From a virus: a DNA stretch of 64,000 nt. Under the pieces are notes generated by a model. The model searched no databases, was not told where the DNA came from, and saw nothing but the letters and a program-made list of their open reading frames with translations. The position numbers and the translations under genes were made by a program. Below, piece after piece: positions 22,018 through 49,337 of this stretch. Numbering within the stretch: the stretch's first letter is position 1; each line of letters opens with the position of its first letter. The DNA is taken from positions 29,341 through 93,340 of the IMG/VR virus record IMGVR_UViG_3300033688_000038, one strand, 5' to 3'.

Positions 22018-22028
22018 GGTATCTCCTA

Positions 22029-30623: not shown

Positions 30624-30636
30624 TATAAGTCCTTAA

Positions 30637-31854
30637 TTAAAATGTACCAAAATCTATTGTACCACTTATCTCATTGATAGTAGGTAGCCAAGTATTAGGC
30701 CTAGCACCTACATCATCATAATCCAGAATAATATTACTAGATAGTGGATATTTATTAATAGTGGTTGTTTTATCAGTCTTTAACAACAATAAGTTGTTAG
30801 ATTCCATTTTAGAATACGCCCCAACATCAGATGGGCCTAGTGAGATATCAGAAGATAATGCCTTACCATTAACTAATCTAGTGTTTGGCACTCTAGTTCT
30901 GATTGCATTATCTACTTCTACTTTTGTATAAGCTCCAAGGTCAGATGGTAATAAAGTAATAATATTACCAGTCTTTCCATTAACAGACATAACAGAGTTA
31001 GATAATGGGCTACGCATTAGTGACCATTTAGGTACTGGGTTCACTTCCCAGAACATCACATCTTGAGATGAAGTAGTCTTACCAGCAAAAGGTCCAGTGG
31101 AGAATGTGTATGTTTCAAATTCAGTCTCAAATTGAACAAAAAACATTGTGTTAACAGTCTCATCTAAAACGGTAGGGTACTCAGCAGCAGAAGTGGGTGC
31201 CCAAGTTCCACCAGAAACAATCGCAGTGGTAGCAGCGGACATAGCCCTGTCTGCCCAATACTTAGATGAATTCTGTGGGTAACCTTCTGCCCACTGGTAT
31301 GCTAGCTCTTTACTGTCAAATGCAGAGTTCTTATATTCACTAGCTGAGATTTCTGACTCTTTAGCCTCTGCTGCATGAGCGCCAGAGGTGTCTCTATATT
31401 CTTTTGATTTATCTCTAGCTTCAATAGCTGATGCTAAAGCTGTTTCTGCATTTATTTCATGACCTAATGCTCCACTAGCAGAGGCTGCTGACTCTTCAGC
31501 AGAAACTTGTGATAATCCAGCTTGGTGTTCTGAATATTCAGCCCACTCTTTTGATTTATCAGTAAAGGCACCAGCAGCAGCAGCAGACTCTTGTGCAGAA
31601 ATTGCATGAGTCTGAGCAACATCAGCAAATGTACTAGCCCTCTCTGCATCATCATGTGCTTGATCTGCAAAACCTTCAGCAATACCAGCCCAATGTTTTG
31701 AATTCTCTAAATCTTGTAACTCAGAACCAGTAGCTGCATATTGTGACACATTCATTTGAGCAACTACTGTGCCAGGTTGCGGTATTACTTTTGAATTAAT
31801 AGTATTCTTATATCGTTGAGATACATTAGTATTTGAGTCACGTAAAACCTTCAT
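30637..31854 (-). CDS. Long tail fibre, proximal subunit, 405 aa
   Basis: Follows the adaptor; Ala/Glu/Ser coiled coil; 'VNGKALSSDISLGPSDVGAY' fibre repeats; ends 'IDFGTF'. Confidence 0.75.
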   Translation of the reverse strand: MKVLRDSNTNVSQRYKNTINSKVIPQPGTVVAQMNVSQYAATGSELQDLENSKHWAGIAEGFADQAHDDAERASTFADVAQTHAISAQESAAAAGAFTDKSKEWAEYSEHQAGLSQVSAEESAASASGALGHEINAETALASAIEARDKSKEYRDTSGAHAAEAKESEISASEYKNSAFDSKELAYQWAEGYPQNSSKYWADRAMSAATTAIVSGGTWAPTSAAEYPTVLDETVNTMFFVQFETEFETYTFSTGPFAGKTTSSQDVMFWEVNPVPKWSLMRSPLSNSVMSVNGKTGNIITLLPSDLGAYTKVEVDNAIRTRVPNTRLVNGKALSSDISLGPSDVGAYSKMESNNLLLLKTDKTTTINKYPLSSNIILDYDDVGARPNTWLPTINEISGTIDFGTF

Positions 31855-31863
31855 AGCAACTCC

Positions 31864-32538
31864 TTAGTATGTGTATTGTATTGTAAGTGGGCTACCAGAG
31901 AACTCTGCTTCTTCTACTTGCTCCATAACCTGCAATAGTCGTTGCTTACCCTTAGATTCCCAATAGTCAGCTTTTTGTTCTTCCATTAAGAATCTGAAAC
32001 CCTCAGCGACAGCAAGGAATACAAAAGCATCTGGAACTAAATCTAACAATACGTTGGATTGAGTAATCTCAGATACCTCTGGAACATCAGCATAATAAGT
32101 CATTAGGACTTCTTCATTAACATCAACACCTCTGATGTATAATCTATCTGCTGTAATTGACCACACAGGTCTTGTAATCTCCATGTAGTGTTGGAAACCA
32201 CCCCTAGGGTTCATAACAGAATCCCTATCTATTACCTGATCGAAAGGGACACGCTGTAAAGTGCAACCTTTAATCCATACATGCTTCATCTCTAAGTAAT
32301 CATAAGGCATTGATACCCAACCTTCTTCAGGTGATTCACTACTACCCTTTAATGTAAAAGAAACAATCTTCTCCATTGAGGGCATTCTGAGATTACGAAG
32401 AATGGTCTTCTCAGCGGCATTAATAAAGAAAGGAACAGCATCCACTGTGTCTTCATCAAACCTGTTTATATAAATCTTTACAACTTCAACTAGCTTATTA
32501 AAACTAGGCACAGAAGTGAATTCTGTTAACTTACTCAT
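31864..32538 (-). CDS. Head-tail adaptor protein, 224 aa
   Basis: 'FINAAEKTILRNLR...MPYDYLEM...YYADVP...LV.LAVAEGFRFL' pattern of SU10/phiEco32-type adaptors; position. Confidence 0.8.
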   Translation of the reverse strand: MSKLTEFTSVPSFNKLVEVVKIYINRFDEDTVDAVPFFINAAEKTILRNLRMPSMEKIVSFTLKGSSESPEEGWVSMPYDYLEMKHVWIKGCTLQRVPFDQVIDRDSVMNPRGGFQHYMEITRPVWSITADRLYIRGVDVNEEVLMTYYADVPEVSEITQSNVLLDLVPDAFVFLAVAEGFRFLMEEQKADYWESKGKQRLLQVMEQVEEAEFSGSPLTIQYTY

Positions 32539-32656: not shown

Positions 32657-32692
32657 CAAAAAGAAAGGGAAGCATAAGCCTCCCTTGTTTTT
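32657..32692. terminator. Rho-independent terminator, probably bidirectional
   Basis: AAGGGAAGC-ataa-GCCTCCCTT stem (32665-32686) with T-rich tails on both strands. Confidence 0.75.
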
Positions 32693-32927
32693 AATCACAA
32701 TTTACTGTATCACATAATTTATCTAATGAATCAAGAGCAATAGTTGTATTAACTTCTCCTAAGATTGATACTGAACCTAATAAGATTAGAAACATAATAA
32801 TAACAAAGATAACTCTATTTTTATTATACTGATCTTTAGGTCTAATATATTTCATTATTGGTTTACTCACTGATTGTATTACAGGTAGGAATTTTGATAG
32901 TAGAGATAAACCACTTAACAGTGACAT
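32691..32927 (-). CDS. Small membrane protein, possible holin, 78 aa (start MSLLSGL)
   Basis: TM 'VIFVIIMFLILLGSVSILG' plus an amphipathic N-terminus; strong AAGGAGG SD before 32927; own promoter and terminator. Confidence 0.55.
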   Translation of the reverse strand: MSLLSGLSLLSKFLPVIQSVSKPIMKYIRPKDQYNKNRVIFVIIMFLILLGSVSILGEVNTTIALDSLDKLCDTVNCD

Positions 32928-33062
32928 ATAACCCTCCTTATTATATAAATATAGGAGTATCATTATAATTAGTAAATCATAATTAATAATCAATTAATAA
33001 TTAATAATCTTAATCTCTATCGTATCAGTGATACTCCCCGTCATTTTTCATTCCTATGATTA

Positions 33063-33108: not shown

Positions 33109-35277
33109 TTATAAAATAGGTAATGAGTCAATATGGTATATAGCTTTAATCTCATCAGAACCTAAAGATCTATTATAGATTCTACATGAAGATACTCGAC
33201 CTTTAAAACAACCAGTTCCAAACTTAGCACCAGCATTTCCTAATAATTGACTATTAAGCAATGGTGCTCCAGTTGTCTTTCGTGATTGGACAAGATCGCC
33301 ATTTAGGTATAACAAGCAAATACCAGCTTCTTTTGAATAGGTAATTGTTAGATGTTGCCACCCATCAATATCACCATTCCAATTCCCCTCTAAAGCTGCA
33401 GCAGCAATCAAACTACACTTACGACCATTAGGCGCTGTATAATCAGGGTATACCACTATAGAGTTTTGAGAGAAAGTACAAATACCACCAGCTGCACTAG
33501 AGCCTTCATAGTTAAATACCCATGTAACTGCATTATCTCTAGTAGATACATCTGGTTTAAACATTATAGATTTAGTGTAAGATGAATCAGAAGATGTGAT
33601 ACCATATTTAATATAAGATTCTACAGAACCACCAGCAAAAAGTGCAACCTTTGTAAAGTCAGGATCAGTAACATGCGTGACAGAACTACCAGGGGTAATA
33701 GTAACACCTCCTGAAGTCATAATATTAGTGTTTAATGCACCAGAAGAGAAATTTTGATAGAGAATCAAACCATCTTTAGTTGATGTAAAATTAACACCTG
33801 TATTCTGAGTACTAGTAACATTATCTGTTTCAACTAAACCAGCACCACCAAGAACAGGCCTTGTATGTGTAGTACCAAAGTTAGGGAAAAGAGTGGTATG
33901 TCTGAAGATTGCATTAGATATACTCTCTGCCATTGTAGATGAGAAACCTTTAGTAGAGAAGTGAATTTCACGACCACTAGTAGTCTCACCTGTACCCCAC
34001 TCCCTATTGGTCTCAGCAAACTTACCATGTTTATCAACATCAACTCGTAAGAATAATAATTTAGAAGATCCATTCTCAGTTTTATAGTGACTACTCAAAA
34101 AAGAATAGTTGTTATAAATAGAAACTCTATTCTGTAACTCTCTCTCATCCCAATTTTTCTGTAGATTAATATAATCTGTTTCTAAGTTAGCAGTAAGCAT
34201 CCACTTTGTAGGACCAACACAAAACCATCTAAAATTATCCATTCTACCTTGAGGTAGGTAAGAGTCAAGTCCATCTGCCTCAAATTTAGTTAAGAACCAA
34301 TCAAAGAAAGATTTAAACCCTGTATAGTGGGCTTTATGACTACCTTTATCATTCTCACCTTGAATCCAAACAAAAGGTAATAGTTTATTTTCTGGATTTA
34401 ATTCTAAAGCAAACTTAGTTCTGTAATAGAAATCCTTAGATAAAGGTTTATCAACTCCATGTCTTCTAGCATTCTCAGCACGAAGTTTAGCCTGATTCCA
34501 AGTACCATCACTACCACTAATAAAACCAGTACCTCCATAGGCACAAGGAACAATTAGGATACCATAATCATCTGGAATGTAAGGTAATAGCATTTTAGCA
34601 ATATACATACCAGAGCTAACAGTACCACCCCCATTTAGTTTACTATGCTTAAACATGTTTTGACCAAAATCAAGACAAGGTGTAGCTGGAATAACTTTCA
34701 GATTACAATCAGCATGAGGGCGAAGTTTATCCCACAACTCATCATAATTACTCCCAGTTTTTGCTATTGTTAGATCATCATTAACCGAACCAGTAGCATA
34801 TCTACCAAGCTGTTTAATCCTTGGATTTGGTCCATCAACACCCTTAATATTATAAGGAGATTCACCATAACCAACACAGTTTGATTGACCACCCATAGGT
34901 AGTACATAATATTTAGTAATAGGTTTAGCTACTTCACCACCCCCACCCCCACCAGGGGCTTCTTCTAGTGCTGTAACTTTACCTGCAAGTGTAACTAAAG
35001 ACTCTTCATGTAAAACAATAGCATCTGAGTTTAATACAATTGAGCCATCTTGTACAACTTGACCTTCTTCTAATGTTGTAAGTCTAGCAAGGAGGGGGTC
35101 TAGATCACCCCCACCCCCACTTCCACCACCTAATTCCAACCTTTCAATCCGATGATCATGCTCTGTTGTTCGCATTGCCACATCATTATGCTGTGTGATA
35201 AGAGGGTTTAAGATTAATTCTCTTACATCCCTCTTATACTCACCACCATGAAAAGTACTTATATTTGTATATGACAT
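33109..35277 (-). CDS. Appendage protein: shared anchor + coiled coil + NanS-like SGNH sialate O-acetylesterase (SASA/DUF303) + LamG/ConA-like lectin domain, 722 aa
   Basis: 'YYVLPMGGQSN', 'WIQGEND' and 'REIHFS' SGNH blocks; C-terminal 'WQHLTITY...LYLNG...FKGRVSSCRIYNRSL..DEI..IY' LamG pattern. Confidence 0.85.
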   Translation of the reverse strand: MSYTNISTFHGGEYKRDVRELILNPLITQHNDVAMRTTEHDHRIERLELGGGSGGGGDLDPLLARLTTLEEGQVVQDGSIVLNSDAIVLHEESLVTLAGKVTALEEAPGGGGGGEVAKPITKYYVLPMGGQSNCVGYGESPYNIKGVDGPNPRIKQLGRYATGSVNDDLTIAKTGSNYDELWDKLRPHADCNLKVIPATPCLDFGQNMFKHSKLNGGGTVSSGMYIAKMLLPYIPDDYGILIVPCAYGGTGFISGSDGTWNQAKLRAENARRHGVDKPLSKDFYYRTKFALELNPENKLLPFVWIQGENDKGSHKAHYTGFKSFFDWFLTKFEADGLDSYLPQGRMDNFRWFCVGPTKWMLTANLETDYINLQKNWDERELQNRVSIYNNYSFLSSHYKTENGSSKLLFLRVDVDKHGKFAETNREWGTGETTSGREIHFSTKGFSSTMAESISNAIFRHTTLFPNFGTTHTRPVLGGAGLVETDNVTSTQNTGVNFTSTKDGLILYQNFSSGALNTNIMTSGGVTITPGSSVTHVTDPDFTKVALFAGGSVESYIKYGITSSDSSYTKSIMFKPDVSTRDNAVTWVFNYEGSSAAGGICTFSQNSIVVYPDYTAPNGRKCSLIAAAALEGNWNGDIDGWQHLTITYSKEAGICLLYLNGDLVQSRKTTGAPLLNSQLLGNAGAKFGTGCFKGRVSSCRIYNRSLGSDEIKAIYHIDSLPIL

Positions 35278-35292
35278 TATAAATACTCCTTA

Positions 35293-36408
35293 TTATGCAG
35301 CTGGGTGATTAAGGAATGAAGTAGCACCACCACTAACAGCAACCCAGTGAATAAAGGCAGTGCCATTCTGTAGTGATAATAATTGTACAGATTCACCAGC
35401 TGCTAGAGTTAAATTGTCATTAGCAACACCATTATACCAAATCTTCTGACGCTCAACAGGTGTTATAGTCATAGCTGGTTTTAATGAGGCAATGAATAAT
35501 AATCTACCACCAGGAACTTGCTCAGCATCAATAGGTGTTTCAATAATAGTTGGAAGAGCAACAGTATTAGTATTGCCAGTTGCACCAACAATAGTACAAT
35601 ATTCAGCACAATCTGCAGCTGTATATACTGACTGAACAGGACACATGCAGAATTTGACATCTTTACCATGGATTAGTGAATCACCACCAATACTAGGCAT
35701 ACTGTAAAACTCAACACCATTACCAGCAGTATTTACACGTAAACCCTTACCAGCACTTCCTGTGTAATCCGAAGGAGTATCCGTCAGAGCAGTAAAAGTA
35801 GTACTACCACCTTCACCACCACCGCTACCAGATGGCTCAGATGTAAACTCAAGGGCGCTTCCAGATGAGTTAACCTTTAGCCACTTATTAGCAACAAGTG
35901 TACTTGGAGTATCAGTCAAGCCAGTGAAAGTACTACTACCGCCACCTGAACCACCACCACTAGATTCTAGAGCTGAGATTCTTCCACTATGGTTAGTGAC
36001 ATTCAAGTCTAAAGTAGACACTTTAGGTTCTAAGGTAGAAACTTTAGACTCTAGTGTAGACACTTTTGGTTCAATTACATTCAATCTAGAGGTAATAGGT
36101 GTAAGGTCAACATCACCACCACCACCTCCAGAGATTACAGCTTCCCATGCAAGATTACCTGAAGCACTTACTTTTAAGAACTTACCAGGATCTTTCACAG
36201 GAATGTCATTAAGGTCAAATAAGCTTGAAACTTTTGTACTTGTAAGATGATCAACCCTATCATCAACACGGTCTAATAAATCACTAGTAGACATTAAATC
36301 TACTCCCATTTTATTATGTTGTACAATAAGAGGGTTGAGGATGTTCTCACGGATATGACTCTTGTATGCGTCATCTACGAAAGTATTGATTGTTGTATAT
36401 CTATCCAT
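35293..36408 (-). CDS. Fibre-like appendage protein with the shared anchor, 371 aa
   Basis: Shared N-terminal motif; KVSTLE heptad x3; two 'FT.LTDTP...LKVN..G..EF' fibre modules plus a related third one. Confidence 0.75.
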   Translation of the reverse strand: MDRYTTINTFVDDAYKSHIRENILNPLIVQHNKMGVDLMSTSDLLDRVDDRVDHLTSTKVSSLFDLNDIPVKDPGKFLKVSASGNLAWEAVISGGGGGDVDLTPITSRLNVIEPKVSTLESKVSTLEPKVSTLDLNVTNHSGRISALESSGGGSGGGSSTFTGLTDTPSTLVANKWLKVNSSGSALEFTSEPSGSGGGEGGSTTFTALTDTPSDYTGSAGKGLRVNTAGNGVEFYSMPSIGGDSLIHGKDVKFCMCPVQSVYTAADCAEYCTIVGATGNTNTVALPTIIETPIDAEQVPGGRLLFIASLKPAMTITPVERQKIWYNGVANDNLTLAAGESVQLLSLQNGTAFIHWVAVSGGATSFLNHPAA

Positions 36409-36498
36409 TTATAATTCTCCAATATAGAAAATAACTGGCAGTTTTAGAAATCAATCAATAAGTGCTATTAACACGGATACGTTATTTTTCTGTTTTAA

Positions 36499-36957
36499 TT
36501 ATTTATTATTAATCCACTCTTCCCACTCTAGTGCGTCGCCCCAAGGGTCTTCATCTAGCCATTCTTTTAGTAATGGTTCAGGTAGAGTTTCTAAAAATTC
36601 CATCCAAGGTAAATCATCACCCCATAATTCTTCATCTTCCCATATTTTAAGAAGCCTATCAATTACACTATCATCAGGTGTATATGGCATGCAAATCCAC
36701 CAAGGATCAGATACCTCAGAAAAAGTAATACCCACCATAGATGGTGTATTTATATATTTGGCAAAGGCTTTTAGTGCCTTTTTTCTCCAAGACAAAGTGT
36801 AACCATATCTTCTAAGATTATCGTTTGCATTTGATAAGTTCAAACTAAAAGCGATAATACTTTTCATCTTGTTACACTTATGCCTAGAGCCCCAAAACTT
36901 AAACTGTAGATCAGTAGTTATAGGGAAATTGAGTGTGTTTAAATTAGCAGGTACCAT
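36499..36957 (-). CDS. Hypothetical protein with a Trp/acidic C-terminus, 152 aa
   Basis: GAGGGGG SD; own promoter motif; 'WEDEELWGDDLPW...WLDEDPWGDALEW'. Confidence 0.7.
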   Translation of the reverse strand: MVPANLNTLNFPITTDLQFKFWGSRHKCNKMKSIIAFSLNLSNANDNLRRYGYTLSWRKKALKAFAKYINTPSMVGITFSEVSDPWWICMPYTPDDSVIDRLLKIWEDEELWGDDLPWMEFLETLPEPLLKEWLDEDPWGDALEWEEWINNK

Positions 36958-36987
36958 TTTACCCCCTCATAAGTTTATATACAAATG

Positions 36988-37015
36988 TATACAAAATATT
37001 ACAAGAAAGCTCACA
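36988..37015 (-). promoter_or_regulatory. Putative late promoter TGTGAG-N15-TTGTATA
   Basis: Motif copy upstream of the 152-aa gene. Confidence 0.75.
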
Positions 37016-37027
37016 ATATGTACTAAA

Positions 37028-39466
37028 CTATTTACTATCCAATATGTTAAGAGAAGCAATCTCAGTTTTTGATAAAGACTTATTATAAATCCTCAAACTA
37101 GACACTCTACCATATAAAGGTAAAGAGTTCATTGCTGCCCCTATCTTAAGAGTTACCATTGAATCACCCTCGGTGGGGATGGTTTCAACTAGGCACCCAT
37201 TTAGGTAAACACTCACGTATTTATTACCAGTGTGCCTTGTCATACAAACATGCTGCCAATCATCATACATACCATTCCATGCACCAAGATAACTTTTATT
37301 CAGCATTACACCCATTGCTAGGTTTTTAATACTAGTACATGCAACAAAAGATCCTTTATATAAACCCAACCAAGGTGTATTATAGTCACGTTCATCCATG
37401 GGACCGAGAACTGATTGCTCTATATTACGTCTCTCTTTTTTAGGTTTAAAAACTACACTATATGTATAATCTTTTATAGGGACAACAAAATTGACAGACC
37501 CTGCATGACTTGTATTGCCATCAAAATCATAAACATTTCCATATAAAGGGTCATTAACTATAGCACATGTAGGAGGAGTTACAGTGATACCACCCAAGGT
37601 GTACTCTATCTCTTTACTTTTATCAATATGTACAAGTAATCCAACAGACGGGTCAAAGTCATCACTTGCGGATTTATTATACTGAAAGGTAACATTATCT
37701 GTAGAAACAAACCCTCGTCTACCTCTGATATTCCTATTCCATCTAGACGGAACATAACCATTAATACACTTACCATAAGCACTAAGTATGTTAACTAGGT
37801 AAGATGGCTGTCTGTACATTAATGTAGATGAAGAGAAGTGCCAATCTGTTTGACTAGAAGCCACAGAGTCTTTACCACTATCAGCTAACTCCTCGATAAC
37901 AGTTTCAAAGAAATCTCCATTACTATCAATGTCAATACGCGAACTGATAATTTGACTCTCTTTATTAGAACCTTTAATAAACTCAGGGTCAGACATTAGA
38001 TAAGCATAATTATCATAATTTGCACGTATACTTGCCCAAGGACTATCATAACTAATTAATCTATCTAGATGATCTTTACCATATAAATTTTCACCATATG
38101 CAATTTTTGTTGTTCCAAGACATATCCATCTAAAATCTTGAGGGTTTTTAGTTGGAACACGATCTCCTAATCCATCTGTTGCTAGTGAATCTCTAAAGTG
38201 TTTAACATAAGCTCTGAATCTATCGAAATGAATAGAAGGGTCTTTATCAGACTCACCTTGGAACCAAATAACAGGTAATAGTTTATTCTCTGGATTTAAT
38301 TCTAGGGCAAACTTAACTCTATCATAAAACTGATTACCAAATGGAGTATCTACACCCCATCTACGAGCATTAGCACTAGCATGCATTTTAACAGGATCAT
38401 AGGTTCCTAGTGAATTCTCATCACCAAAACCTGTACTCCCACGAGAACCATCAACTATCAAGATACCGTAACCCTTAGGGATATAATCCAATAACTTACC
38501 TGCTAGGTAATGGCCAACACCTACTAAACCACCAGGACGTTTAAAAGAACCCCTCCCTGAGAAGTGAATAAGTGACATTAAGTTATGCTGATTATCAAGA
38601 CAATATGTTGAAGGTATTAGTTTTAAATTACAATCCTCATAAGGTCGATATAAATCAAACTTATCACCAAAGATTGTAGCCACTGGTGGTACATTGTAAA
38701 CATTACTTGTCCAGTTTTCTGCTGTGGTCTTAATAGAACTTAAAAAACCTAACTGCATTAATCTAGGATCAATCTCAGGGAGATCTGGTAATAGTTCACC
38801 AAAACCTGACATGTTAGATTGTCCAGCTAGGGGTAATACATACCACTTAGTAGGGGTGGTAACACCACCACCACCATCAGGTTTATTCTGAAGGGCAGTT
38901 ACATCTTCAGATAATTTAGTAATAATTACACCTTGTGATGTATCACTCTCTTTTAATAGGGAAAGCTTACTCTCTGAGATGACTTCCTTCTCCTCTAGAG
39001 CTATAACCTTAACATCTGTTTCATCTAACCTCTTAAGGATAGGAGCTAAATCAACATCCCCTGAACCACCACCTCCTAGTTCCAATGAACCCACTCTAGC
39101 TGTAACATCCAACACATCAGCAGCTATTTTATCTACACGAATATTAGATTCATCAAACGCAACATCCAATGAAGTGTCTTTTTCAACAAGTGCTGCAAGT
39201 TGCTCCATGATAGGTGTAAGATCAACATCACCACCCCCTGATCCACCACCTAATTCAACATCTTCTAAACGCTCAGTTATATTTTGTAAATCGTAAGACA
39301 TTACAGATAACTTATTAACTTGATCAAGTAGCCCTGTAGATGTTTTTGAGATATCAATACTCATTTGATTATGTTGATCAATTAGTGGATTGAATATATT
39401 CTTACGGATATGACCTTTTGGGTCATCATCAGCAAAGGTATCAATTATATTATATCTTGCGTGCAT
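37028..39466 (-). CDS. Second appendage protein: shared anchor + coiled coil + NanS-like SGNH esterase + LamG-like domain, 812 aa (start MHARYN)
   Basis: 'WYVLPLAGQSN', 'WFQGESD', 'DWHFS'; C-terminal 'WQHVCMT...VYLNG...LYGRVSSLRIYNKSLS..EI'; AAGGA SD before 39466. Confidence 0.85.
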   Translation of the reverse strand: MHARYNIIDTFADDDPKGHIRKNIFNPLIDQHNQMSIDISKTSTGLLDQVNKLSVMSYDLQNITERLEDVELGGGSGGGDVDLTPIMEQLAALVEKDTSLDVAFDESNIRVDKIAADVLDVTARVGSLELGGGGSGDVDLAPILKRLDETDVKVIALEEKEVISESKLSLLKESDTSQGVIITKLSEDVTALQNKPDGGGGVTTPTKWYVLPLAGQSNMSGFGELLPDLPEIDPRLMQLGFLSSIKTTAENWTSNVYNVPPVATIFGDKFDLYRPYEDCNLKLIPSTYCLDNQHNLMSLIHFSGRGSFKRPGGLVGVGHYLAGKLLDYIPKGYGILIVDGSRGSTGFGDENSLGTYDPVKMHASANARRWGVDTPFGNQFYDRVKFALELNPENKLLPVIWFQGESDKDPSIHFDRFRAYVKHFRDSLATDGLGDRVPTKNPQDFRWICLGTTKIAYGENLYGKDHLDRLISYDSPWASIRANYDNYAYLMSDPEFIKGSNKESQIISSRIDIDSNGDFFETVIEELADSGKDSVASSQTDWHFSSSTLMYRQPSYLVNILSAYGKCINGYVPSRWNRNIRGRRGFVSTDNVTFQYNKSASDDFDPSVGLLVHIDKSKEIEYTLGGITVTPPTCAIVNDPLYGNVYDFDGNTSHAGSVNFVVPIKDYTYSVVFKPKKERRNIEQSVLGPMDERDYNTPWLGLYKGSFVACTSIKNLAMGVMLNKSYLGAWNGMYDDWQHVCMTRHTGNKYVSVYLNGCLVETIPTEGDSMVTLKIGAAMNSLPLYGRVSSLRIYNKSLSKTEIASLNILDSK

Positions 39467-39467
39467 A

Positions 39468-41435
39468 TTAAGCTTCCTTATTTTTACTAAGAATGTTAAG
39501 TTTTTCTTCAAGAAATAAAACTCTCTCTTTTAATAACTTAAACTCTTCATTATAATCTAATGTGATCTCTGTTTTAGGTGCAGCTTTATTTATATTAACC
39601 CAGAATTTACTATTAGGTTTAACCCCAACCCAAGCCTCTTGATGACTACCAAAATCTTGAACATACATCTCTCCAACATGACCAACAGTTAGACTAGTTG
39701 TAGGAGCTGCAGCACCACTACGGTAATTCTTAAAATAAGAATCCATTGTTCCACATGTTTTAGTTAACTCAACAACTCTTGATGTTAATGAATTAGCATC
39801 TTTACCACTAACATATGTATCTAATAAATTAACCTTATTCTCAGTAGCCTCTAGGGTAGTTCCAAAATGGTCTACTGTGACACCGATGTGATCTATATCA
39901 CTATCAAGCGTTCCTAAATCTGTTTTAATAAGTGATAATGTATTATGGTTATCTTGTATATCACCTTCCATGATTTTAATCATCTCAGTAACACCAGTAA
40001 CTGTATTTGTGGTATCAAAAACTTTCTTCCATGTAGAAGATTTACCAGCCTCAGTAGCGACATATACAGAGTAATCAACACTATCTCTTATCTTCTGTAT
40101 ATAGATCTCTCCTGCTGAAATTGGAATTACTACACCTAGTGGGTTTCCTCCACCTTGGCTAGCACCAGACAAAGAGACGTTATGATCCTTTGTTCCGATT
40201 CTTTGGTCACTTGAAAAGTAGTTAACTGTATTAAGGAAAGCAACATCATGGAAGTTGTTCATATTCTTTAAGTCAACCCATTTATTATTAGTACCTCCTT
40301 GTAGTGAGAAGTAAAGGTCAAATGTGATTTTTGAATCTACCGTATGTTTGTATAAGTATAATTCACCAGTGGACACTGACGTGATGTTACCAGTTGGAGT
40401 TTTTTCTCCAATCTGAATAGTCGATAGGTTAGAGAAATGTGATGCATTACCAACTCTTTGATCTGGGATGAATGTATTAATCTTATTTGTCTTTGGTACA
40501 AATTGAGAATCCTCCCCACTTTCATTAAGTGGTAGCCATCTTGAACCTCTAGCAATCCATACATTAGAAGATCCTTTACCAGAATTATACTTAGCACTAA
40601 TAAAGAATTGACCCTCATGGTCTGGTAATACACCCCTACCCTCTGGAGTTTCTTCTCCACCATCTATGTAAGATAATATCTGTTTACCTGATAAAGTTTG
40701 ACCTGTAACAGTGAAGTTATTAGCTTTATCATTTAAAACGATTGAAGGAGGAACATCAATTCTAGATGTATTAATCTTCTCCCACTCAAGTCCTTCGTGA
40801 TTATTTCTATATGCAATATATACCGATGGTGAATACGCATCATCACAGATACCTAATTGTCCTCTATAATCAGGAGGGCTTGATGGCTCTTTTGTTTTAA
40901 AAGTTTTAGCTGTAACTAATGGCATATCTTTTACAGTTTGATAAATGTTTGTAAAGTTATTAGGTTGATTATTCATAACAAGATGATCTACAGGAGGGGA
41001 GATTATATGCCACTGTTTATTGATAGCCACATAGGCTGTATGATTATTAGCAGTATGAGTATCTATATAAATATGACCATTACCTTTAATACTCACTGGA
41101 GTTGGAATTGTTGTTCCATATGTAATACATGGAATCTGAGCACCCATAATAGTCTGACTATATTTGGTAAAATTATTATCTGTATCTTCTCTTACTACAT
41201 AATCTGGCAACCCTGTATCATTTTCCCCAAGTGGAGACCAAGTCTTACCATCAGCAATGAATGCTTTACTCTTACCTGCACTAACTGTACAAAGCGCAAT
41301 TTGACCTGGAAAATCACCAGATGCATCTGGAGCAGGAGTTAAAAAACGTTTTACTGAAACAATCTGAGATCCCTTAATCTTCTGATCTACACTTGTATAA
41401 TTATTACTACTTTCTTGATATACTACACTAGTCAT
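39468..41435 (-). CDS. Repeat-rich fibre-like protein, 655 aa
   Basis: About five ~70-80-aa modules ('NNFT...QT...I...P...GQ....YIA...W..I') followed by a coiled coil. Confidence 0.65.
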   Translation of the reverse strand: MTSVVYQESSNNYTSVDQKIKGSQIVSVKRFLTPAPDASGDFPGQIALCTVSAGKSKAFIADGKTWSPLGENDTGLPDYVVREDTDNNFTKYSQTIMGAQIPCITYGTTIPTPVSIKGNGHIYIDTHTANNHTAYVAINKQWHIISPPVDHLVMNNQPNNFTNIYQTVKDMPLVTAKTFKTKEPSSPPDYRGQLGICDDAYSPSVYIAYRNNHEGLEWEKINTSRIDVPPSIVLNDKANNFTVTGQTLSGKQILSYIDGGEETPEGRGVLPDHEGQFFISAKYNSGKGSSNVWIARGSRWLPLNESGEDSQFVPKTNKINTFIPDQRVGNASHFSNLSTIQIGEKTPTGNITSVSTGELYLYKHTVDSKITFDLYFSLQGGTNNKWVDLKNMNNFHDVAFLNTVNYFSSDQRIGTKDHNVSLSGASQGGGNPLGVVIPISAGEIYIQKIRDSVDYSVYVATEAGKSSTWKKVFDTTNTVTGVTEMIKIMEGDIQDNHNTLSLIKTDLGTLDSDIDHIGVTVDHFGTTLEATENKVNLLDTYVSGKDANSLTSRVVELTKTCGTMDSYFKNYRSGAAAPTTSLTVGHVGEMYVQDFGSHQEAWVGVKPNSKFWVNINKAAPKTEITLDYNEEFKLLKERVLFLEEKLNILSKNKEA

Positions 41436-43102
41436 TATAAAACCTCTACAATATTAATACGACCTGAATTATTAACAGATATACCGAAGAACTTACCATT
41501 AGGTGATTTAAGTTTAATCGTATTTATATCTGTGGACTCTATTGATTGGAGAACATCAATCCTACCTGTATTATCTATAGTTATACCCCATACTGTTCTG
41601 TTTGGAGACCTTAGTAGGATATAATCTTTAGATGCTCCACCTCCAGTTTGTTCTACCCAAGATAGTGTTTTACCATTATTTGATAATACTTTATCTTTTG
41701 TGGAAGGTGAACCTGAGATATCATCTTTTTCAAATAATGTAGGTATCGGGTATTTCATCTCCATGCGATAACCAACACCCTTAGCACTAGCACCAGTTAA
41801 TCCTTTAATCAGGATACTGTCTGTCTCTTGTAAATACATACTACTTACAGAGGGGTCAACATCAGTAGGTAATTTAATAGTAAAAGATTCAACAAAAGCT
41901 TTATCTCTTACTGAAATCTTCCACTTAGCATTTTCACCCTTAGGTCCACGAATATCTCCCATATCTTCTGGTTTGACAACACCAAGCATTGACTCAGTAA
42001 TACACCATAACTCTCTAGGTTTAGTTGGATCAGAGGCATCGCCTACAAGGGCTGCCTTTCCCACATTATCAGATACCGCTGGGTATTGAACCAAAAATTC
42101 AGCTAATGTGCCATAAGAGCCAACCATTTGCATAGATTTACCATCTTTGCCATCCTTACCATCTTCACCCTTATCACCTTTTAACTCTTCCATAGCCTCG
42201 TCAATGGTTTTCTCTATCATAGATTTTGCTGTGTCTTCAATTTCATCTTCTATCTTCATACCAATATCATTTGCAATATTAGTAGCCTCAGAAACAGCAG
42301 CAGCAGTAGCAGCCGATACAGCACTAGATACAGCAGTAGCAATAATTGTATCCACAACTGCTGTTGCTACCCCACCTTCTTCACCCTGAGGGCCTTTTGG
42401 TCCCATAGAGCCCTTAGGACCCACTGGACCTTGTATTAACCCACAATCTGTCCAGTTAGCAATATATGTACTAGGTAGTGTATGTGGAGTCCACATATGT
42501 CCAGTTTTAGTTACAAGAAAATAATCACCAATAGTGGCTTTGATTTTAGTTAAATCATTGTTCCAAGTAACATGACCCTTCAGGGCAATACTTTTACCAT
42601 CATGACCATTATCACCTTTGTCACCCATGTCACCTTTTTCTCCAGGCTCTCCTTTCTCTCCAGGAGGACTTATCTCTCCTTGTGGACCTATCTCACCTTG
42701 TAGCCCTCTAGGGCCTGTATCACCCTTCTCACCAGGCTCACCCTTCTCCCCTTGGCTACCTAAGCTGCCAGGCTCACCCTGCTTACCATCGACCCCAGGG
42801 GGCCCTGAAGGCCCCTGTATCTCTTCCTCAAGTACTAATAGCTTCCAAGTATCCTCAGGTTCTTCTTTTGGTGTTTTATATCTCCAAAGTACTGCACCTT
42901 TCTTAGATAGTGGATCAAAACCTGTCTTAAGCTCTAACTCTCTACCATCCTTACCTGTAACACCAGGACTCCCACCTTTCTCTAGAGCTTCAACTCTTAC
43001 AAGAATTGGTGAGATTCTATTGATGTTATATTCTTTTAAATCAACATCCATTACACATGCTGATCTGTCACTGTTAATATTATCTATAATATCTCTAATC
43101 AT
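41435..43102 (-). CDS. Collagen-like (Gly-X-Y) fibre protein, 555 aa
   Basis: Long GXY run '[17 protein letters not shown]...GDNGHDGKS' plus shorter GXY tracts; duplicated C-terminal 'L.SPN...GI...N.GRI'. Confidence 0.85.
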
Positions 43103-43113
43103 GTCAACTCCAA

Positions 43114-46100
43114 TTAACTAGCATCACCAGGGTTATAAACTCCACCATACGTTCTAGTGGTTTTAGGCTCTGTTGTACCAGTAGCCTCCGCACGAACTTC
43201 ATGTCCATTATTAAATGATAACCCACCAAAAGTGTTTCTATAAGTACTGGCAATACTAGAAGCGGTTTTAGCTACACTACTAGTAGGGTCAATAGCTAGA
43301 TAACATTTATAAGGGTCAAGTGCGCACTTCTTAATTTTAGTAGCGTCACCTCCAACCTGAGTCACCTCAATTGAGAGTTTAATATCTCTAGTCAAGTGTG
43401 TTGTAGGGAATGATACAACTGCAGATGGATACAACCCTTTAAAGTTACCAGAAACAGCTGGAACCATTTTAACAGTAATATCATTACCAATCTTCTCTTT
43501 AGTATCAGCATTCTTCAATGTGAACACTAGAGAACTAAGGCCAGTAAGATCTTCCTTATCAGCAGTTAAGTGTATACATGTCTTCAAAGAGTAATTACCT
43601 TCATTAATTAAACTGAAAGCAGCACCATTTTTACTAAAGATAATATTAGATTTAGCATCTTGTACAAGCTGCCATTTAATACCACCACCAGATATAAACT
43701 TTTGATCATTTATAGTAGTAAACACAGAGTGATGTTCATCCGTTATGCCATAATCTTTGTAAGACCACACACTCCAAATAGTACCACTTTTCCTATATCT
43801 AGTAAGAACTTTACCAGTTTCAAACTCACAATAAGATTGGAACCAATTAGCATCATTATAATAGATATTACTTAATGAACCAGCCTTACCACCTACAATA
43901 CCAAGACCTCCAGTAGCAATTGTAGCTGATGCACTAGATTGTGAAATATTAGTAACACATAGATTTTTATTATCATCCTCTATGTATCTAGTGGGGTTAG
44001 GTAATGTTACTGGAAACCTTTTAGATATAGATTTAACATGTAAATCCATCTCTGGATAAGCAAAACTCTTCCAATTATTACCATCAGAAAGATAAAGTGT
44101 TGATGTGTTTTTAGTAAAACCAAGACATTCAGTATTACTACCAACTGGACATGCAGTAGCAAGTGATGCTATATTATCAGCAACATTAATAGCACTCTTA
44201 ATATCAACTGTTAATTCTTTAGTACGACCATCATACCTTGAATTAGACAAACCACCTGTGATATTAATCTTATCAATAGGCATATCTTTAGGGGTAATCA
44301 TTGTTTGACCGTCAGCACTAGTCATAGCACCTACACACTTACCAGTAATAATACTAGCAATTGTAGGTGTGTATTCAATATACTGATTATCACCCTCACC
44401 CTCTGTAGTTAACAGTCCACCATTAAGTTTAATCTTATGTACAGATGGATAAGTGACATCAACTTCACCTATACCTTGTGTCTTTTTACCTTTAAGACTT
44501 AATGTACCAATATTAACTGTAGTTTCATCTCCGCTTCCGCTTACAATTGCATTACCTTTAATATTTATCATGTGTACATTTTTACTTATATTCTCTGCAC
44601 CCTTATCATCCATACCCTTGATAGAGATACCTTTAGAGTCCACTTTTATACTCGTATTTTTAGATTCTGTAATAACCTCAGTTACTAAGTTGTCTCCGAA
44701 AGTGATCTTACTAGTGTTAAGTTTAACAGGTTTAGCTTCACCATTATTACCAACAACTTCAATACCACTAGGAGTTCCACCACCTCCACTGCTCTCAACT
44801 GTAACAATAGCAGTATTAGTGCCATCAGTCTCAGTCACATGAGATAATATAGCAGAACCAGCGAATGTTAGTTTACCAACTTTATCTACAATAATAGGAG
44901 CACCATCGGTATCTTTACCAGTAATAGTGTGACCTTTGTAACCTATGACTGACTTAGAGTATTTACCAAGAACAGTATCCGTTACTTCAACTTTTTCTAA
45001 TGTAAGATGGTTCCCCTTTAGTTCAATCTCTTTAGAATCAAAAGCTTTTACGGGAGCACCTGTTGGATCTGTTCCACCAATCAATACAGTCTTTGATTCT
45101 AAGAAAGTAATCTTGGTTGTACCTTTAGTATCAGAAGTATCACCCTCTATCCTAACATTACCAGCAAAGGATAAACCTGACTGCTCTTTACGAATAAGAC
45201 CAGTGTTTGCTTTCCTGACAGTCATCATTTTAGCTGTAACAGAGACACCATCATTGTGTTGACCTGTTTGGTATACATTAAATGAGTTCCTATTAAACCC
45301 TATTGTTTTAGCTTTAGTTGTGTGATATGAACCAGAGGAATCTTCACCTGTCACTGTCACTGTATTATCAGGTGTACCAGGTGTACCACCGCCAGCTGGA
45401 GGAATAGCAATTAACATTGCACCATCATCTGAGAGGCTAGAACCTGTTGTACTATTATTAACTACTGTGATTGATTTGATTGGCTTGCTAGCAGCACCAA
45501 TAGTGCCATCAATACCCTTAATGTACAATGTATTTGAATCATCTATAAAAGATCCTACATTCTCATGAACTTTCAATTTACCAATAGGCTTAGCTGTACC
45601 TTCACCAACTTGAGCCACAAAAGTACTAGTATCTGAGTTTATAGACACAACACCATTAAGTGTCGTAAGTGTAATCCCTTTACCTTGTTTAATATCTTTT
45701 ACTATACCACCATCTGTACCAATCGGAGAGTCAGTGGAATCAAGGGCTCTTATTGCACTAATAGTTAGTTTCTTACCAGGGACATCAACTGTATGGTACG
45801 GACTATTAAAGTGTAATGTATCAACTTGAGCAGGAGATCCTTCTGCAACTTCTACTGTAAGGACTGTACCCACAGACGCTGATTTAGGTGGAACATTGAT
45901 AGTTAAAACACCAGCATCTGTAACAGATGTACTTCCAGCTTCTAATTCTGTTACTACAATCTTACTTAAACCTTTAGTAGCTGAACCAACAACACCTTGT
46001 ACACCTTTCAAATGTAGAGTATTATCAGAGTCTTCATAAACACCAGAATTGACACCAAACTTAAGTCTAGTAATAGGTTTGATAACATCACCACCAGCAT

Positions 46101-48213
46101 TTTGTGATTCCATCTTAGGAGTCTCTAAGATATTAATGTCAAGTGTTCCATCAACAAGTGTTGACTTTTTATTACTACCACTTATTTTAATCTTTTTAAC
46201 TTGACCTTCAGTACCATCACCAATTACACCTACAATACTATTAGTAGTTTGATCTGGTACATTAATGGTTAAGATGCCCTTGTTGATACTTGTAGTTTCA
46301 TTCTTAGTAATTTTGATTTGAGAAATAGGGGTAACTGCTCCATCACCAATCCTAGCTTCTTGTCCTTTAATATATAAAGTTTTCTTATCAGTACCTTCAT
46401 ACACACTGTTAATAGCGTCTGCTTTTATAGTATTAATAGGTTTAACACTGCCATTACCAATCTTAGAGTCTAAAATCTTAGTATCTAATAAATTGATACT
46501 TAATCTACCACCTGAGATAGTAGAACCTGTTGTCTTACCTGTAAGCCTAATTTTGGTAACAGGAGTAGTTGTCCCAGTTCCAATCTGAGCAGAGATTTGA
46601 TCTTGTGAGATAACCTCAACTGTAGCTGCATTAGGTACAACATTTCCTTGTGTATCATAAGAGTCAGATACAGTAACACCTTTACCTTTAAATCTAATCT
46701 CACTAAGTCCAGTCTTAACATCAGTAGGAGTACTAATAGTTGTGGTTTTTGATATTTTCATTGTAGGTAGAGCTTTTACAGAAATAACTTTTGTATTATC
46801 AGCACCTACTTTAGATATTAAACCAAAACCAATAGAGTCAAATTCTAATTGATCTACCTCTGGGAATACAGAGCCAACAGTTTTATCATCAGATACAATT
46901 AACTTCTTAGTTATAGTACTAGTTTCTTTAAAATCAAGAGTTAATATTCCACCCTCAATTGAAGTTCCAGCACCATAAGCACCTTTGATAGCAATCTCAG
47001 TAATAGGTTGAGCAGAGTCTACACTATTGAAACCCCAACGATCACCTGAGCTTGTCCACTTCTCATCACCCGACCACTTCTTACGGAAAGTCTTAGTGTG
47101 TAATGGATTACCAGTAAGTGAATCACTGAAAGTTTGAATACTCTCTTGTACATCTTCTATAGCAGGATTCCATTTATTATTTCCAATCCAGTTAGCTGGT
47201 TCATCCCATGTGTTACGAGGAGAAGTACCATTACCAGTATCTGGGTCCCACTTATTATCACCAATCCATGTCTCAGGTTCATTCCACAGAGTTCTATCTT
47301 GAAGCCTGATATCGCTCCACTTATTACTACCAACCCATGTGTCAGGTTCACCCCACACTGATTTACCTAAATCTTCACCTTTGTAAATCCAGTTCTCTAG
47401 GTCAAACCAGTCTTCTCTGTCACTCCATAAAGCTATTTGTTCTTCTGGTACATCTTCTAGATTCTTACCAACAAGAGTAGCATTAAAATGAGGTATTTTA
47501 AGATTAAGTGTATTATCCGTGACACTAGTACTAGCTGTATTACCAGAGATAATCATATTATCATAATGTTCTGGCTTTAAAGCAGCACCAACTGTTACCA
47601 TTTTATTTGGGATATCAAGTGTTAATGTACCATCACCTATCCTACATAAATCAGAATCACCTGTAATCTCTAGTTTGTTTATATGACCAGAAGCACCTGT
47701 ACCATCTGGTTTCTTAATTTCTGTTGATAGTGATGTTTTAGCACTAACTTCAATAGTAAGATGAGTTGGTTCATCTTTATCTGGTTGTGTAATTGAAGCA
47801 CCTGGGAAGTTAAGAAAATCAGCTACATAATTCTTAGTTCCATTTCCAACGTGAATAGAACCGCCTCCACCTCCACCTCCTGTAAACATAGGTGAGAAGT
47901 CACACTCTGATTGAACACCAGAGTTATTATATAAAGTAAAAGTTTTAGTTGGACCATCTACATGGCACTGTACAAAAGACTTCTTTGTAATAATAGTATT
48001 CTTAGAGACTGTTGGTTCTAGATAATCTAACCTAGATTGAAACTTATTAATAATAGTTTTATTACTTTGTATTTCACTTGCCATTGACTTCATTTGTAAA
48101 TCTGAAGCAGCAGCTTTTATTTCAAGATCATTCACCTTTAAAATAGCAGGGTTTAACGAACCTGTACGTATGGTCTTTTTTAAATCACCATTATTAAAAA
48201 CAGGGATTGCCAT
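43114..48213 (-). CDS. Giant repeat-rich appendage (putative head-fibre) protein, 1699 aa
   Basis: Many ~40-45-aa beta modules ('A.IG.G...PI.KI.I....S.I..G.L.INI'); Trp-rich insert; N-terminal '[16 protein letters not shown]' resembles the shared anchor. Confidence 0.7.
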
Positions 48214-48231: not shown

Positions 48232-48270
48232 AAAAAAGGGGGTAAGACTGAATTAACAATCTTACCCCCT
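48232..48270 (-). terminator. Strong rho-independent terminator ending the MCP array
   Basis: 11-bp stem AGGGGGTAAGA/TCTTACCCCCT followed by a T-tract on the - strand. Confidence 0.9.
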
Positions 48271-48291: not shown

Positions 48292-48426
48292 TTATTTTTT
48301 AAGTTTTCCCTTCACCACAGGTGTTTTATCAACTGAAGGTCCAACTTCTACAACTGAAGGCTTAACCCTAACAGTCTTTGTAGCTAAAGTTGGATCTACT
48401 GTTGGTGGAGGGTTTACGCCTTTTTT
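48292..48426 (-). other. Putative programmed -1 frameshift (A AAA AAG) giving MCP-8 a 42-aa extension
   Basis: Heptamer at 48426-48420 just before the stop; the -1 frame reads GVNPPPTVDPTLATKTVRVKPSVVEVGPSVDKTPVVKGKLKK* to 48292 and ends 22 nt before the terminator stem. Confidence 0.7.
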
Positions 48427-49337
48427 ACTTCAAGTACACCTGAAGCGAAAGGGTTGCGGTGACGAAGACCTACTTCCATCTCGATCATCCACTTCTCATA
48501 GCTGCCATCTTTAGCTAGCTTAGTACGCTCTGGAGAACGTAGAACCATTTGAGTCCAATCAGATGGAGTGAAGAAGTAAATTGCATCTTCTGGCATCCAA
48601 CGGTTAGGCATTAATTTGTACTCTTGACCTAGTGGGTCTACTAGAGTAGAAACAAATACACTGAACTTAGGAGTGTTCTCAAAGATACGCTGACGAGAAC
48701 CATCACCTTTCTCTTGCAATGCAGAGAATAAAGATGCATGCTTAGGGTGGAACATGATAATGTTCGCATTAGAGCCTGCAAGGTAAAGGTTATAAGTCAA
48801 ACCAAAGATGTCAACTTCTGTAAGAGTTGCACCAGCAGTTTCTGTATGCACAACAGCACCAGTGTCTGTATCAGCAACAGCTTTAGCAGCAACTAATCCA
48901 CGGAAACCTGAAGTCTCACGAGCAACGCCGTTAGAGCCATCAACTTTAGCGATTTGAGTTAGGAATGCATGCTCTAGGTCACGCTTGATTTCTGTACCAG
49001 CTTTTTCCATTTGATATTGAAGCTCTTTACCACGACCGTAGTTTGCTAATGCGTTAGCTGTGTCAGATACTTTAACTACTTTACGTAGAATCTGTGTCAC
49101 GTTGTTATGTACAGTGGTCATCTTTGGTAAGCCGCCTTCAACAGCAGTTTCACCTTCAGCGATAGCATTCTTAGAAACTGGGTTCAGTGCATCTGACTGC
49201 CACTGGAACAAAGTATTCTGGATAGACTCTTTACCAGTCATTGAAGTGAAAGGAGTTTCAGCTGGAGATAGATTAGAAATCCAGTTAGCAAAACTTAATT
49301 TTTTACCGTTTAGGTCATAAGATTGTAGAGTAGCCAT
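48414..49337 (-). CDS. Major capsid protein paralogue 8: bare core, probably the main MCP, 307 aa
   Basis: SU10/phiEco32-type (DUF5309) MCP motifs 'SYDLNGKKLSFANWIS', 'TQILRKVVKVSDTA', 'LAKDGSYEKWMIEMEVGLRHRNP'; own promoter; AGAGGA SD. Confidence 0.92.
   Translation of the reverse strand: MATLQSYDLNGKKLSFANWISNLSPAETPFTSMTGKESIQNTLFQWQSDALNPVSKNAIAEGETAVEGGLPKMTTVHNNVTQILRKVVKVSDTANALANYGRGKELQYQMEKAGTEIKRDLEHAFLTQIAKVDGSNGVARETSGFRGLVAAKAVADTDTGAVVHTETAGATLTEVDIFGLTYNLYLAGSNANIIMFHPKHASLFSALQEKGDGSRQRIFENTPKFSVFVSTLVDPLGQEYKLMPNRWMPEDAIYFFTPSDWTQMVLRSPERTKLAKDGSYEKWMIEMEVGLRHRNPFASGVLEVKKA

Follow-up and report, generated by a model that had tools for sequence, protein, structure and literature searches.

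A phage's host range is set by its fibres, and engineering it requires that the docking pieces of these fibres be known; to our knowledge, only a few fibre docking pairs have been described, such as the branching domain and conserved peptide of the KP32-type phages. Two kinds of accessory fibre, the T4 fibritin (wac) whiskers and the phi29 gp8.5 head fibres, are trimeric segmented coiled coils with glycine breaks and a short N-terminal attachment, and aid adsorption. The present analysis concerns a fibre-gene array in a 64,000-nucleotide stretch of viral DNA (the window; bases 29341-93340 of the 124,877-bp virus record IMGVR_UViG_3300033688_000038), in which four large proteins (f1699, f812, f371 and f722) open with a related motif of about 35 residues, here termed the plug. 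A small protein of the same array, p152, and the stalk of the giant f1699 carry acidic loops of three regularly spaced tryptophans (W-x5-W-x5-W, here termed Trp-triads) that are candidate sockets for the plug. As is newly pointed out here from sequence comparison, p152 is a core gene of the 7-11-like phages.

The closest described concept is the branched receptor-binding protein (RBP) system of the podophages KP32, K11 and KP34 of Klebsiella, in which RBP1 bears an anchor and a branching domain and RBP2 a conserved docking peptide (PMC13352976). By analogy, the system described here would be the same in outline: a short conserved N-terminal peptide would dock a swappable fibre, and several modular payloads, known here from sequence, would be carried per virion. 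Unlike in the KP32-type phages, the candidate socket is a Trp-triad loop rather than a T4gp10-like branching domain; a separate, small core protein bears such candidate sockets, and a single stalk has five of them. The genes precede the adaptor gene instead of following the nozzle and core genes, and up to 4-7 plug proteins are encoded per phage.

The precedent for the proposed socket comes from SU10 (Kuravirus), in which, as cryo-electron microscopy has shown (7z47; PMC9509320), Trp839, Trp847 and Trp857 of a nozzle loop are arranged as a star of pseudo-threefold symmetry by which the short tail fibre, a trimer, is held. The sequence of this loop, 'PIWSDFQEITWDDPSIKELVW', was confirmed in the SU10 genome, and kinship with the SU10 lineage is indicated by a shared portal, major capsid protein (MCP), adaptor, nozzle and short fibre. 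In both cases the loop is acidic and contains three spaced tryptophans; however, their spacing is 7 and 9 in SU10 and 5 and 5 here, no homology to the plug was detected for the SU10 partner (the N-terminus of gp16, with its Tyr-Ile-Tyr clamp), and the triads considered here are located on p152 and f1699, where the contact is one that we infer. Segmented coiled coils with glycine breaks behind a short N-terminal anchor are common to the plug fibres and to fibritin and gp8.5, which are single proteins devoid of enzymatic payloads; no sequence similarity between them and the plug fibres was found.

The plug and its family

The array begins about 200 nt past the last MCP gene and ends ahead of the adaptor gene, in agreement with the placement of the block in the initial annotation. 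Its parts, in order of transcription and with the two flanking genes, are as follows.

48414-49337: MCP-8, the eighth MCP paralogue
48237-48270, minus strand (read from 48270 to 48237): terminator-like hairpin with a 14-bp stem and a T-run, between MCP-8 and f1699
43114-48213, minus strand: f1699 (1699 aa), with plug of sub-type A2 (residues 1-38) followed by a Gly-run, the five Trp-triads of the next entry, modules of beta repeats and a C-terminal domain that is conserved
47035-47427, minus strand: the five acidic triads of f1699, W-x5-W-x5(6)-W, residues 263-393, candidate sockets
41435-43102, minus strand: f555, collagen-like fibre of the core array, without plug (Pfam Collagen, E 1.5e-14; PHROG tail-fibre families)
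39468-41435, minus strand: f655, repeat-module fibre of the core array with a C-terminal coiled coil, without plug (homologues in L061, L062, L066 and ERR13834959)
37028-39466, minus strand: f812, with plug of sub-type A1, two Gly/coiled-coil linkers, NanS-like SGNH esterase and LamG lectin (predicted; GQSN, QGESD and WHFS motifs)
36499-36957, minus strand: p152 (152 aa), helical N-domain and C-terminal tail with two Trp-triads, candidate socket protein (phrog_20917)
35293-36408, minus strand: f371, with A1 plug and coiled coil, then two units of the form 'F..L.DTP..Y.G..GK.L.VN..G..LEF' and, at the C-terminus, a beta domain (P0018 and P0020 are among its homologues)
33109-35277, minus strand: f722, with A1 plug, Gly/coiled-coil linker, NanS-like SGNH esterase and LamG lectin (predicted; 3pt5, E 4.7e-35; Laminin_G_3, E 7e-11)
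32691-32993, minus strand: p100, small hydrophobic open reading frame (ORF) ending the block
32665-32686, minus strand: another terminator-like hairpin, at the end of the fibre block and ahead of the adaptor gene
31864-32538, minus strand: adaptor, 224 aa, SU10 gp11-type, dock of the long tail fibre (7z47_A, E 1e-19)

Four large proteins sharing an N-terminal motif had been reported in the initial annotation, and the ORFs were indeed found at the given places, with the quoted peptides at residues ~12-33. The length of f812 is counted from its ATG, an alternative TTG start giving 827 aa being unlikely. A regular expression applied to the six-frame translation of the window gave four matches to the motif and no more, all of them where one of these ORFs begins, and a search of the whole genome with residues 1-60 of f722 retrieved the other three plugs (E 1.5e-7, 4.4e-4 and 4e-3) as well as one internal match in the coiled coil of f371 (E 4e-3), which is no copy of the motif; the 124,877-bp genome contains four copies, all at residue 1. 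A word-based search with the same f722 residues yielded the self-match only. The four N-termini align with nine invariant columns and are 27-57% identical as proteins, while the corresponding DNA segments display a mean column identity of 66% and encode the same arginine by different codons; since the DNA has diverged while the peptide was kept, selection acts on the peptide and the motif is not a recent DNA repeat. Two sub-types can be distinguished, A1 in f722, f371 and f812 ('Y..I.TF.dd.YK..iRe.ILNPlI.QHN') and A2 in f1699 ('IPtFNnGD....iR..SLNP.I.k.N').

The coiled-coil linker that was described as following the motif in three of the proteins was found in f722, f371 and f812, where a Gly-run precedes '(D)VDL.P(I/L)..(R/Q)L' (twice in f812); f1699 has the Gly-run only. 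The payloads, in contrast, are unrelated only in part: f371 and f1699 differ from the others, whereas f722 and f812 are clearly paralogous from end to end, both with a NanS-like esterase and Laminin_G_3. The fibres are probably trimers, judging from the coiled-coil heptads of the P22/Sf6-needle type ('DHE.RI..LE'), the collagen, and the Sf6-type knob of the minimal plug proteins, the tail-needle knob of Sf6 being a trimeric module. The four proteins are very probably accessory fibres of modular build that share an N-terminal anchor; the N-terminal module common to these trimeric-looking, otherwise modular proteins is genuine and selected, and it behaves as an anchor would.

Residues 121-384 of f722 match NanS (3pt5_A) with an E-value of 4.7e-35, and both f722 and f812 contain the GQSN (block I) and QGE(N/S)D (block III) motifs, although their scores for Pfam SASA fall below the curated cut-off (17-23 versus 24.8 bits). 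These two proteins are predicted NanS-like O-acetylesterase and LamG lectin fibres, and the presence of two such fibres suggests that the host carries an O-acetylated acidic surface sugar. The G7C tail-spike protein gp63.1 reportedly strips O-acetyl groups from the host O-antigen. Like the sialate O-acetylesterases NanS and NanS-p (E. coli YjhS, 3pt5) and G7C gp63.1, f722 and f812 have an SGNH domain, and a fibre-borne esterase of this type would de-O-acetylate surface polysaccharide; in contrast to these proteins, the domain is here joined in one chain to a LamG lectin as well as to a plug and a coiled coil.

A profile built from the four N-termini and scored against 1.84 billion representative proteins gave 31 matches at E <= 1e-3, of which ~27 are proteins beyond the initial four. 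In nearly all of them the plug begins at residues 1-5, and the proteins range from 80 to 1,732 aa; a plug protein of 3,003 aa turned up separately in the context search. The bodies behind the plug are unrelated to one another (esterase-LamG, beta-helix, 'DTP..Y' fibre units, Sf6-type knob and giant beta-repeat proteins). The metagenomic protein P0031 (379 aa), with three tandem A2-like plugs, each followed by a small beta domain, breaks the residue-1 rule. A scan of IMG/VR with the plug pattern gave 75 pattern matches, none of which was confirmed, and among isolated phages no sequence relative of the plug was found outside the 7-11 group. Searches of PDB sequences with the plug profile, p152, p405 (the proximal long tail fibre) and f1699 found nothing, f1699 was likewise without a match in Pfam and PHROG, and no known anchor or branching domain (T7 gp17 N-terminus, T4gp10-like) was detected in the six fibre proteins or p152 by Pfam, PHROG and PDB sequence searches. 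Two proposed relationships were dropped after profile comparison showed no similarity: that of the f555 N-terminus as a degenerate plug and that of the plug as a cousin of the SU10 gp16 short-fibre N-terminus.

In every context examined, the plug is a rare family confined to SU10/7-11-type prolate podophages. Plug contigs show the same slot each time, with the plug genes following the last SU10-type MCP gene and preceding an SU10-type adaptor gene, and a p152 homologue stands inside or beside the plug array; one short contig (L053) shows the fibre array alone. A conserved core array, consisting of an A2 giant (f1699-like), a collagen protein (f555-like), a repeat protein (f655-like) and a p152 homologue in this order, is present in this phage, ERR13834959, L061, L062 and L066. 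The C-terminal ~380 aa of f1699 are common to the first post-MCP gene of L061, L062 and L066, and f555 homologues come after the giant gene in these three and in ERR13834959. A small hydrophobic protein and the adaptor follow the core array in L061 and L062, and in the window the adaptor comes after the extra fibres and p100; the relatives have a PM2_Gpl-like protein of 47-74 aa in the position of p100, which is likened to it by place alone. Fibres with A1 plugs are extras, found in this phage, in ERR13834959 (with seven plug proteins in total) and in L053.

Minimal forms are found in two Aeromonas phages. In 4_4572, gp078, a p152 homologue, is followed by gp077, a 187-aa protein with an A2 plug and an Sf6-type needle knob, and in APT65 a 116-aa p152 homologue with one Trp-triad is followed by a 285-aa protein with a plug, a coiled coil and a knob. 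The minimal plug proteins of 4_4572, LAh_6 and APT65 (187-285 aa) share with the Sf6 gp9 needle a similar knob (35% identity over 170 aa) but, unlike gp9, are encoded before the adaptor gene, beside p152. Since a separate segment like the SU10 needle gp18 is encoded elsewhere in these genomes, the knob-plug proteins are probably not needles. The same applies to the idea that either the A2-knob proteins or f1699 might be the tail needle, which is unlikely given gp18-like segments in the post-nozzle gene of L061 (matching p1814 of the window) and in gp068 of 4_4572. APT65 and 4_4572 are cultured and would be testable carriers of a minimal one-plug, one-socket version. On contig L052 of ERR13834959 (9038-9556), two stand-alone plug-only proteins (85 and 83 aa, one A2-like and one A1) adjoin the p152 homologue; such proteins could cap or compete for sockets.

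Tryptophan triads and the proposed docking of the plug

The N-domain of p152 (residues ~2-95, phrog_20917) occurs in 40 records from phages of the 7-11 group. It was modelled by AF2 as a helical bundle (predicted local distance difference test, pLDDT, >90 at residues 11-90), and the tryptophan-bearing tail was modelled at pLDDT 55-73. This tail contains two acidic triads, at residues 106-118 and 133-145. Among 35 window proteins the W-x5-W-x5-W pattern is restricted to p152 (two), f1699 (five) and the nozzle (one), and in an alignment of 24 p152 homologues the first triad is a consensus feature located right behind the N-domain, the shortest homologues being without it. In the nozzle (20179-22077, minus strand), the single acidic triad occupies residues 493-505 ('WYDNQDWFDVNYW') and is probably the counterpart of the SU10 loop (W839/W847/W857) in which the short fibre docks.

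The N-domain itself is fused to immunoglobulin (Ig)-like domains in BUCT695, GAP52 and Vp_R1; the Ig-like domains of the BUCT695 fusion bear no detectable relation to the Ig tails of the MCPs and give no clue to location. Two cysteines of the N-domain (36673-36957, minus strand), one in 'HKCN' and one in 'PWWxC', come and go as a pair among the homologues: both occur here and in BUCT695, 4_4572 and APT65, and neither occurs in the 7-11 group, Hi226, PJNS034 and Vp_R1. This pairing suggests a disulfide or a metal site.

The distribution of the triads follows that of the plug. Eighteen phages were scored for plugs with a hidden Markov model (HMM) of 28 N-termini (E <= 1) and for a triad-bearing tail on the p152 homologue. 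All nine phages with such a tail encode plug proteins (this phage, ERR13834959, L053, L061, L062, L066, L063, 4_4572 and APT65), and none of the nine whose p152 homologue is without such a tail does (7-11, Privateer, Hi226, PJNS034, L058, L064 and L065, with the N-domain only; BUCT695 and Vp_R1, with the N-domain and Ig-like domains). On a tree of adaptor and MCP sequences the trait is scattered and requires three changes on well-supported branches, or five on the best tree, each of them matched by the tail. In the sister pair L062 and L064, the three fibre genes that lie upstream of the gene for p152 are missing from L064, whose p152 tail is shortened at the 3' end ('AWIDSQN' followed by a stop), with the N-domain in between intact. 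Outside p152, and aside from the nozzle, triads occur only in the three phages with A1 fibres: five in f1699, about two in the 1515-aa giant of ERR13834959 and two in a 144-aa protein of L053. The latter protein showed no significant similarity to f655 (E 0.18).

One further contig (L060, from SRR26596595, 1-13400) was left out of all counts. It encodes at least three MCP paralogues and a bare p152 homologue located upstream of the terminase gene, away from the adaptor, and its terminase gene is split by an HNH-containing insert.

From the plug family, its gene context and its co-occurrence with the triads, we infer a system of modular accessory fibres in which a plug would lead through a trimeric coiled coil or Gly hinge to a payload that binds or modifies the host surface. 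The plug would dock on the acidic loops of the Trp-triads, of which one or two would be offered by the C-terminal tail of p152, the N-domain of p152 holding the assembly on the virion, and five more by the stalk of f1699. A branched appendage would result, with p152 holding f1699, f555 and f655 being further parts of this core fibre, and the A1 fibres (the two esterase-lectin fibres and f371) hanging on the spare sockets, so that payloads could be swapped leaving the virion untouched. Docking of the plug on the triads of p152 and f1699 is given an even chance of being correct. A broader version, in which a ~35-aa plug and 13-residue sockets form a portable grammar, copied onto a core protein, a giant-fibre stalk and a 144-aa linker to build tree-like appendages with up to seven fibres, and in its boldest form rooted on the capsid of a multi-MCP head, is considered improbable.

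A complex prediction with three copies of f371 residues 1-62 and p152, using our own alignments (score 0.02, mark 0.32), speaks neither for nor against binding, and several observations weigh against the proposed docking. The plug shows no detectable homology to the short-fibre N-terminus of the SU10 type, the partner of the known Trp dock. Both f555 and f655 are without a plug, and the model leaves their joining unexplained. Sockets and plugs are unequal in number (seven versus four here, about three to four versus seven in ERR13834959, and one versus two in L066). Within the co-occurrence, the triad of 4_4572 is partial (W-x5-W only) and the plug of L063 lies below the HMM threshold and was recognised by eye; with only three to five independent changes a sign test cannot reach 0.05, and since a plug gene abuts the p152 gene in some phages both could have been lost in a single deletion. 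For the p152 N-domain no structural relative was found: Foldseek found nothing in the PDB, the best match of a wide VIA-align search (Z 3.7) is noise for a helical bundle, BFVD returned the protein's own family only and ESM Atlas nothing usable. Finally, p152 may not be a virion protein, as its homologue in Privateer, gp007, was not among the ten virion proteins identified by liquid chromatography-tandem mass spectrometry (LC-MS/MS), which did include the 12-copy adaptor.

If correct, the proposal would add an unrelated docking pair to the known ones, a 35-residue plug and a 13-residue Trp-triad socket, together with natural evidence that sockets multiply and move between carriers. It also provides a first functional lead for p152, which belongs to the core gene set of the 7-11 group (Grimontviridae and related phages) and is without annotation.

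Position on the virion and alternative readings

The canonical tail positions of the window are occupied by the adaptor listed above and by the following genes.

25029-31854, minus strand: canonical long tail fibre, p405 (proximal) and f1864 (distal, with an S74 chaperone end)
22029-22694, minus strand: p221, short tail fibre, 221 aa (SU10 gp16, 7z47_I, E 1.3e-6)
20179-22077, minus strand: nozzle, 632 aa (7z47_G, E 9.5e-22; matches the nozzles of Pa223, VP1 and SU10)

The N-terminus of p405 ('NVSQY..TG') resembles that of SU10 gp12 ('NVGQFGATEG'), which binds the adaptor dock. As canonical homologues occupy the adaptor/long fibre, nozzle/short fibre and needle positions, the extra fibres have to attach elsewhere, presumably at the site taken by the N-domain of p152. 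A low-copy site near the portal vertex, resembling a collar or whisker, is favoured over the capsid surface, although we would put its probability at about even odds. Pointers to low copy number are the terminator between the MCP genes and p152, the failure to detect Privateer gp007 and the tail-type payloads.

The initial annotation had proposed head fibres forming one modular display system with the MCP paralogues. In this alternative, which is unlikely but the best placed of those considered, the p152 N-domain or the plug would bind the capsid lattice, perhaps at certain MCP paralogues only; the fibres, with a similarly limited likelihood, would decorate the long prolate head in the manner of phi29 gp8.5 or the crAss001 head fibre and make a reversible first contact with the host surface or glycans. 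The slot behind the MCP genes is the usual place of decoration and head-fibre genes (as for phi29 gene 8.5), and the genes of the window lie directly after the MCP array, ahead of the adaptor gene. The fusion of the p152 N-domain to Ig-like domains in BUCT695, GAP52 and Vp_R1 recalls the layout of pb10 and Hoc, and the occupation of all canonical tail docks by other proteins fits a capsid site as well. The system is also carried by all three assessable phages with at least three MCP genes, namely this phage (eight), APT65 (four) and L061 (three or more), as the proposed link to multi-MCP arrays would have it. The coupling is however not strict: plugs occur with a single MCP gene (with an Ig ORF) in 4_4572 and L063, the contig start of the latter cutting the region just upstream, and four phages with two MCP genes (7-11, BUCT695, Hi226 and L058) have no plug. 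Plug and MCP arrays are therefore not obligately coupled, and the idea of one system with the MCP paralogues is not supported as a rule.

Expression and copy number also argue against a decorated capsid. The strong terminator noted ahead of the block corresponds to the terminator-like hairpin just before f1699, and the fibre genes lie behind it, presumably co-transcribed with low-copy tail genes. An annotated terminator directly follows the MCP gene or genes in Privateer and SU10, and in 7-11 one lies between its two MCP genes; expression by read-through, as had been envisaged for the first genes of the block, is normal downstream of the MCP genes in this lineage; a scan for sigma-70 promoters found 67 sites where 69 were expected and is uninformative. 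That LC-MS/MS of Privateer virions detected the adaptor but not the p152 homologue speaks against hundreds of copies, and a 560-kDa trimer of f1699 would be implausible on many capsomers. Moreover, the payloads are tail-type modules (an SGNH esterase as in G7C gp63.1, the Sf6 needle knob and collagen), and neither a Trp-triad nor another candidate dock is found in any MCP paralogue. Overall, a capsid location of the fibres is given roughly the chance of a minority outcome, below that of the portal-vertex site; were it correct, this phage, with its eight MCP paralogues, would have a novel kind of head-fibre array. APT65 (L067, OP491958, 4728-10203), a cultured phage with four tandem MCP paralogues (310, 310, 307 and 428 aa), is a ready laboratory model for questions on both the MCP array and the plug and its sockets.

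A second alternative, which we regard as rather improbable, is that the plug binds a partner other than the triads, such as the portal, the rim of the adaptor or the long tail fibre (p405/f1864), and that p152 is a helper or chaperone whose tryptophan-rich tail serves to trimerise or load the plug proteins. Small genes beside fibre genes often encode fibre chaperones, which is counted in favour of such a role for p152, as is the failure of its homologue to be detected in Privateer virions; the low-confidence tail (pLDDT 55-73) is as expected of a flexible interaction segment, and the co-occurrence of plug and tail suits a helper as well as a socket. It would nevertheless be odd for a chaperone that the N-domain is kept in phages without plugs and fused to Ig-like domains in three lineages, and the five triads on the f1699 stalk and the two on the 144-aa protein of L053 are hard to explain as chaperone parts. 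In addition, the sole solved precedent for a loop of this kind is structural (PMC9509320).

That the shared N-terminus reflects merely common ancestry, or a recombination handle left by fibre-gene duplication, with no docking role, is highly improbable, for although the paralogy of f722 and f812 shows that duplication occurred in the array, 27-57% protein identity has been retained despite a DNA identity of 66% and differing arginine codons, the plug heads wholly unrelated bodies (esterase, beta-helix, Sf6 knob and giants of 1700-3000 aa) in many phages, and it is N-terminal nearly throughout, with stand-alone versions of 80-85 aa.

The surrounding structural module

The large genes of the window are all on the minus strand, and its structural module is assignable to the SU10/7-11 lineage of prolate (C3) podophages by sequence comparison, the SU10-type order of portal, scaffold, MCP, adaptor, short tail fibre and nozzle genes being present. 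The portal shares 54-56% identity with its counterparts in Aeromonas phage BUCT695 (55%), Salmonella phage pSal-SNUABM-01 and Cronobacter phage A24. After it come the gene for the scaffold and a tandem array of eight MCP paralogues (phrog_1328). The adaptor homologues of the relatives carry PF24175.

Directly after the nozzle gene, p1814 (1814 aa; 14673-20117, minus strand) contains a segment of ~110 aa with 40% identity to the protein (545 aa) that L061 encodes after its nozzle, itself a match to the tail needle gp18 of SU10; p1814 could be a tip protein or giant needle of the tail. The block of ejection proteins is closed by an ORF of 2965 aa (1015-9912, minus strand) at the place of SU10 gp24 (1,473 aa) and of the Privateer virion protein gp023 (1,529 aa), the ORF being about twice the size of either.

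No close relative of the phage was found among cultured phages or in IMG/VR, and a Megablast search of the whole fibre block against cultured phages gave zero matches. A second strain was recovered from public runs, in which the entire 17-kb stretch is collinear at ~96-97% identity. Its intragenic insertions and deletions are only multiples of three, and the two of 1 nt are both intergenic; 3-nt insertions or deletions are located at 35813, 35937 and 36116 in f371 and at 38863 in f812.

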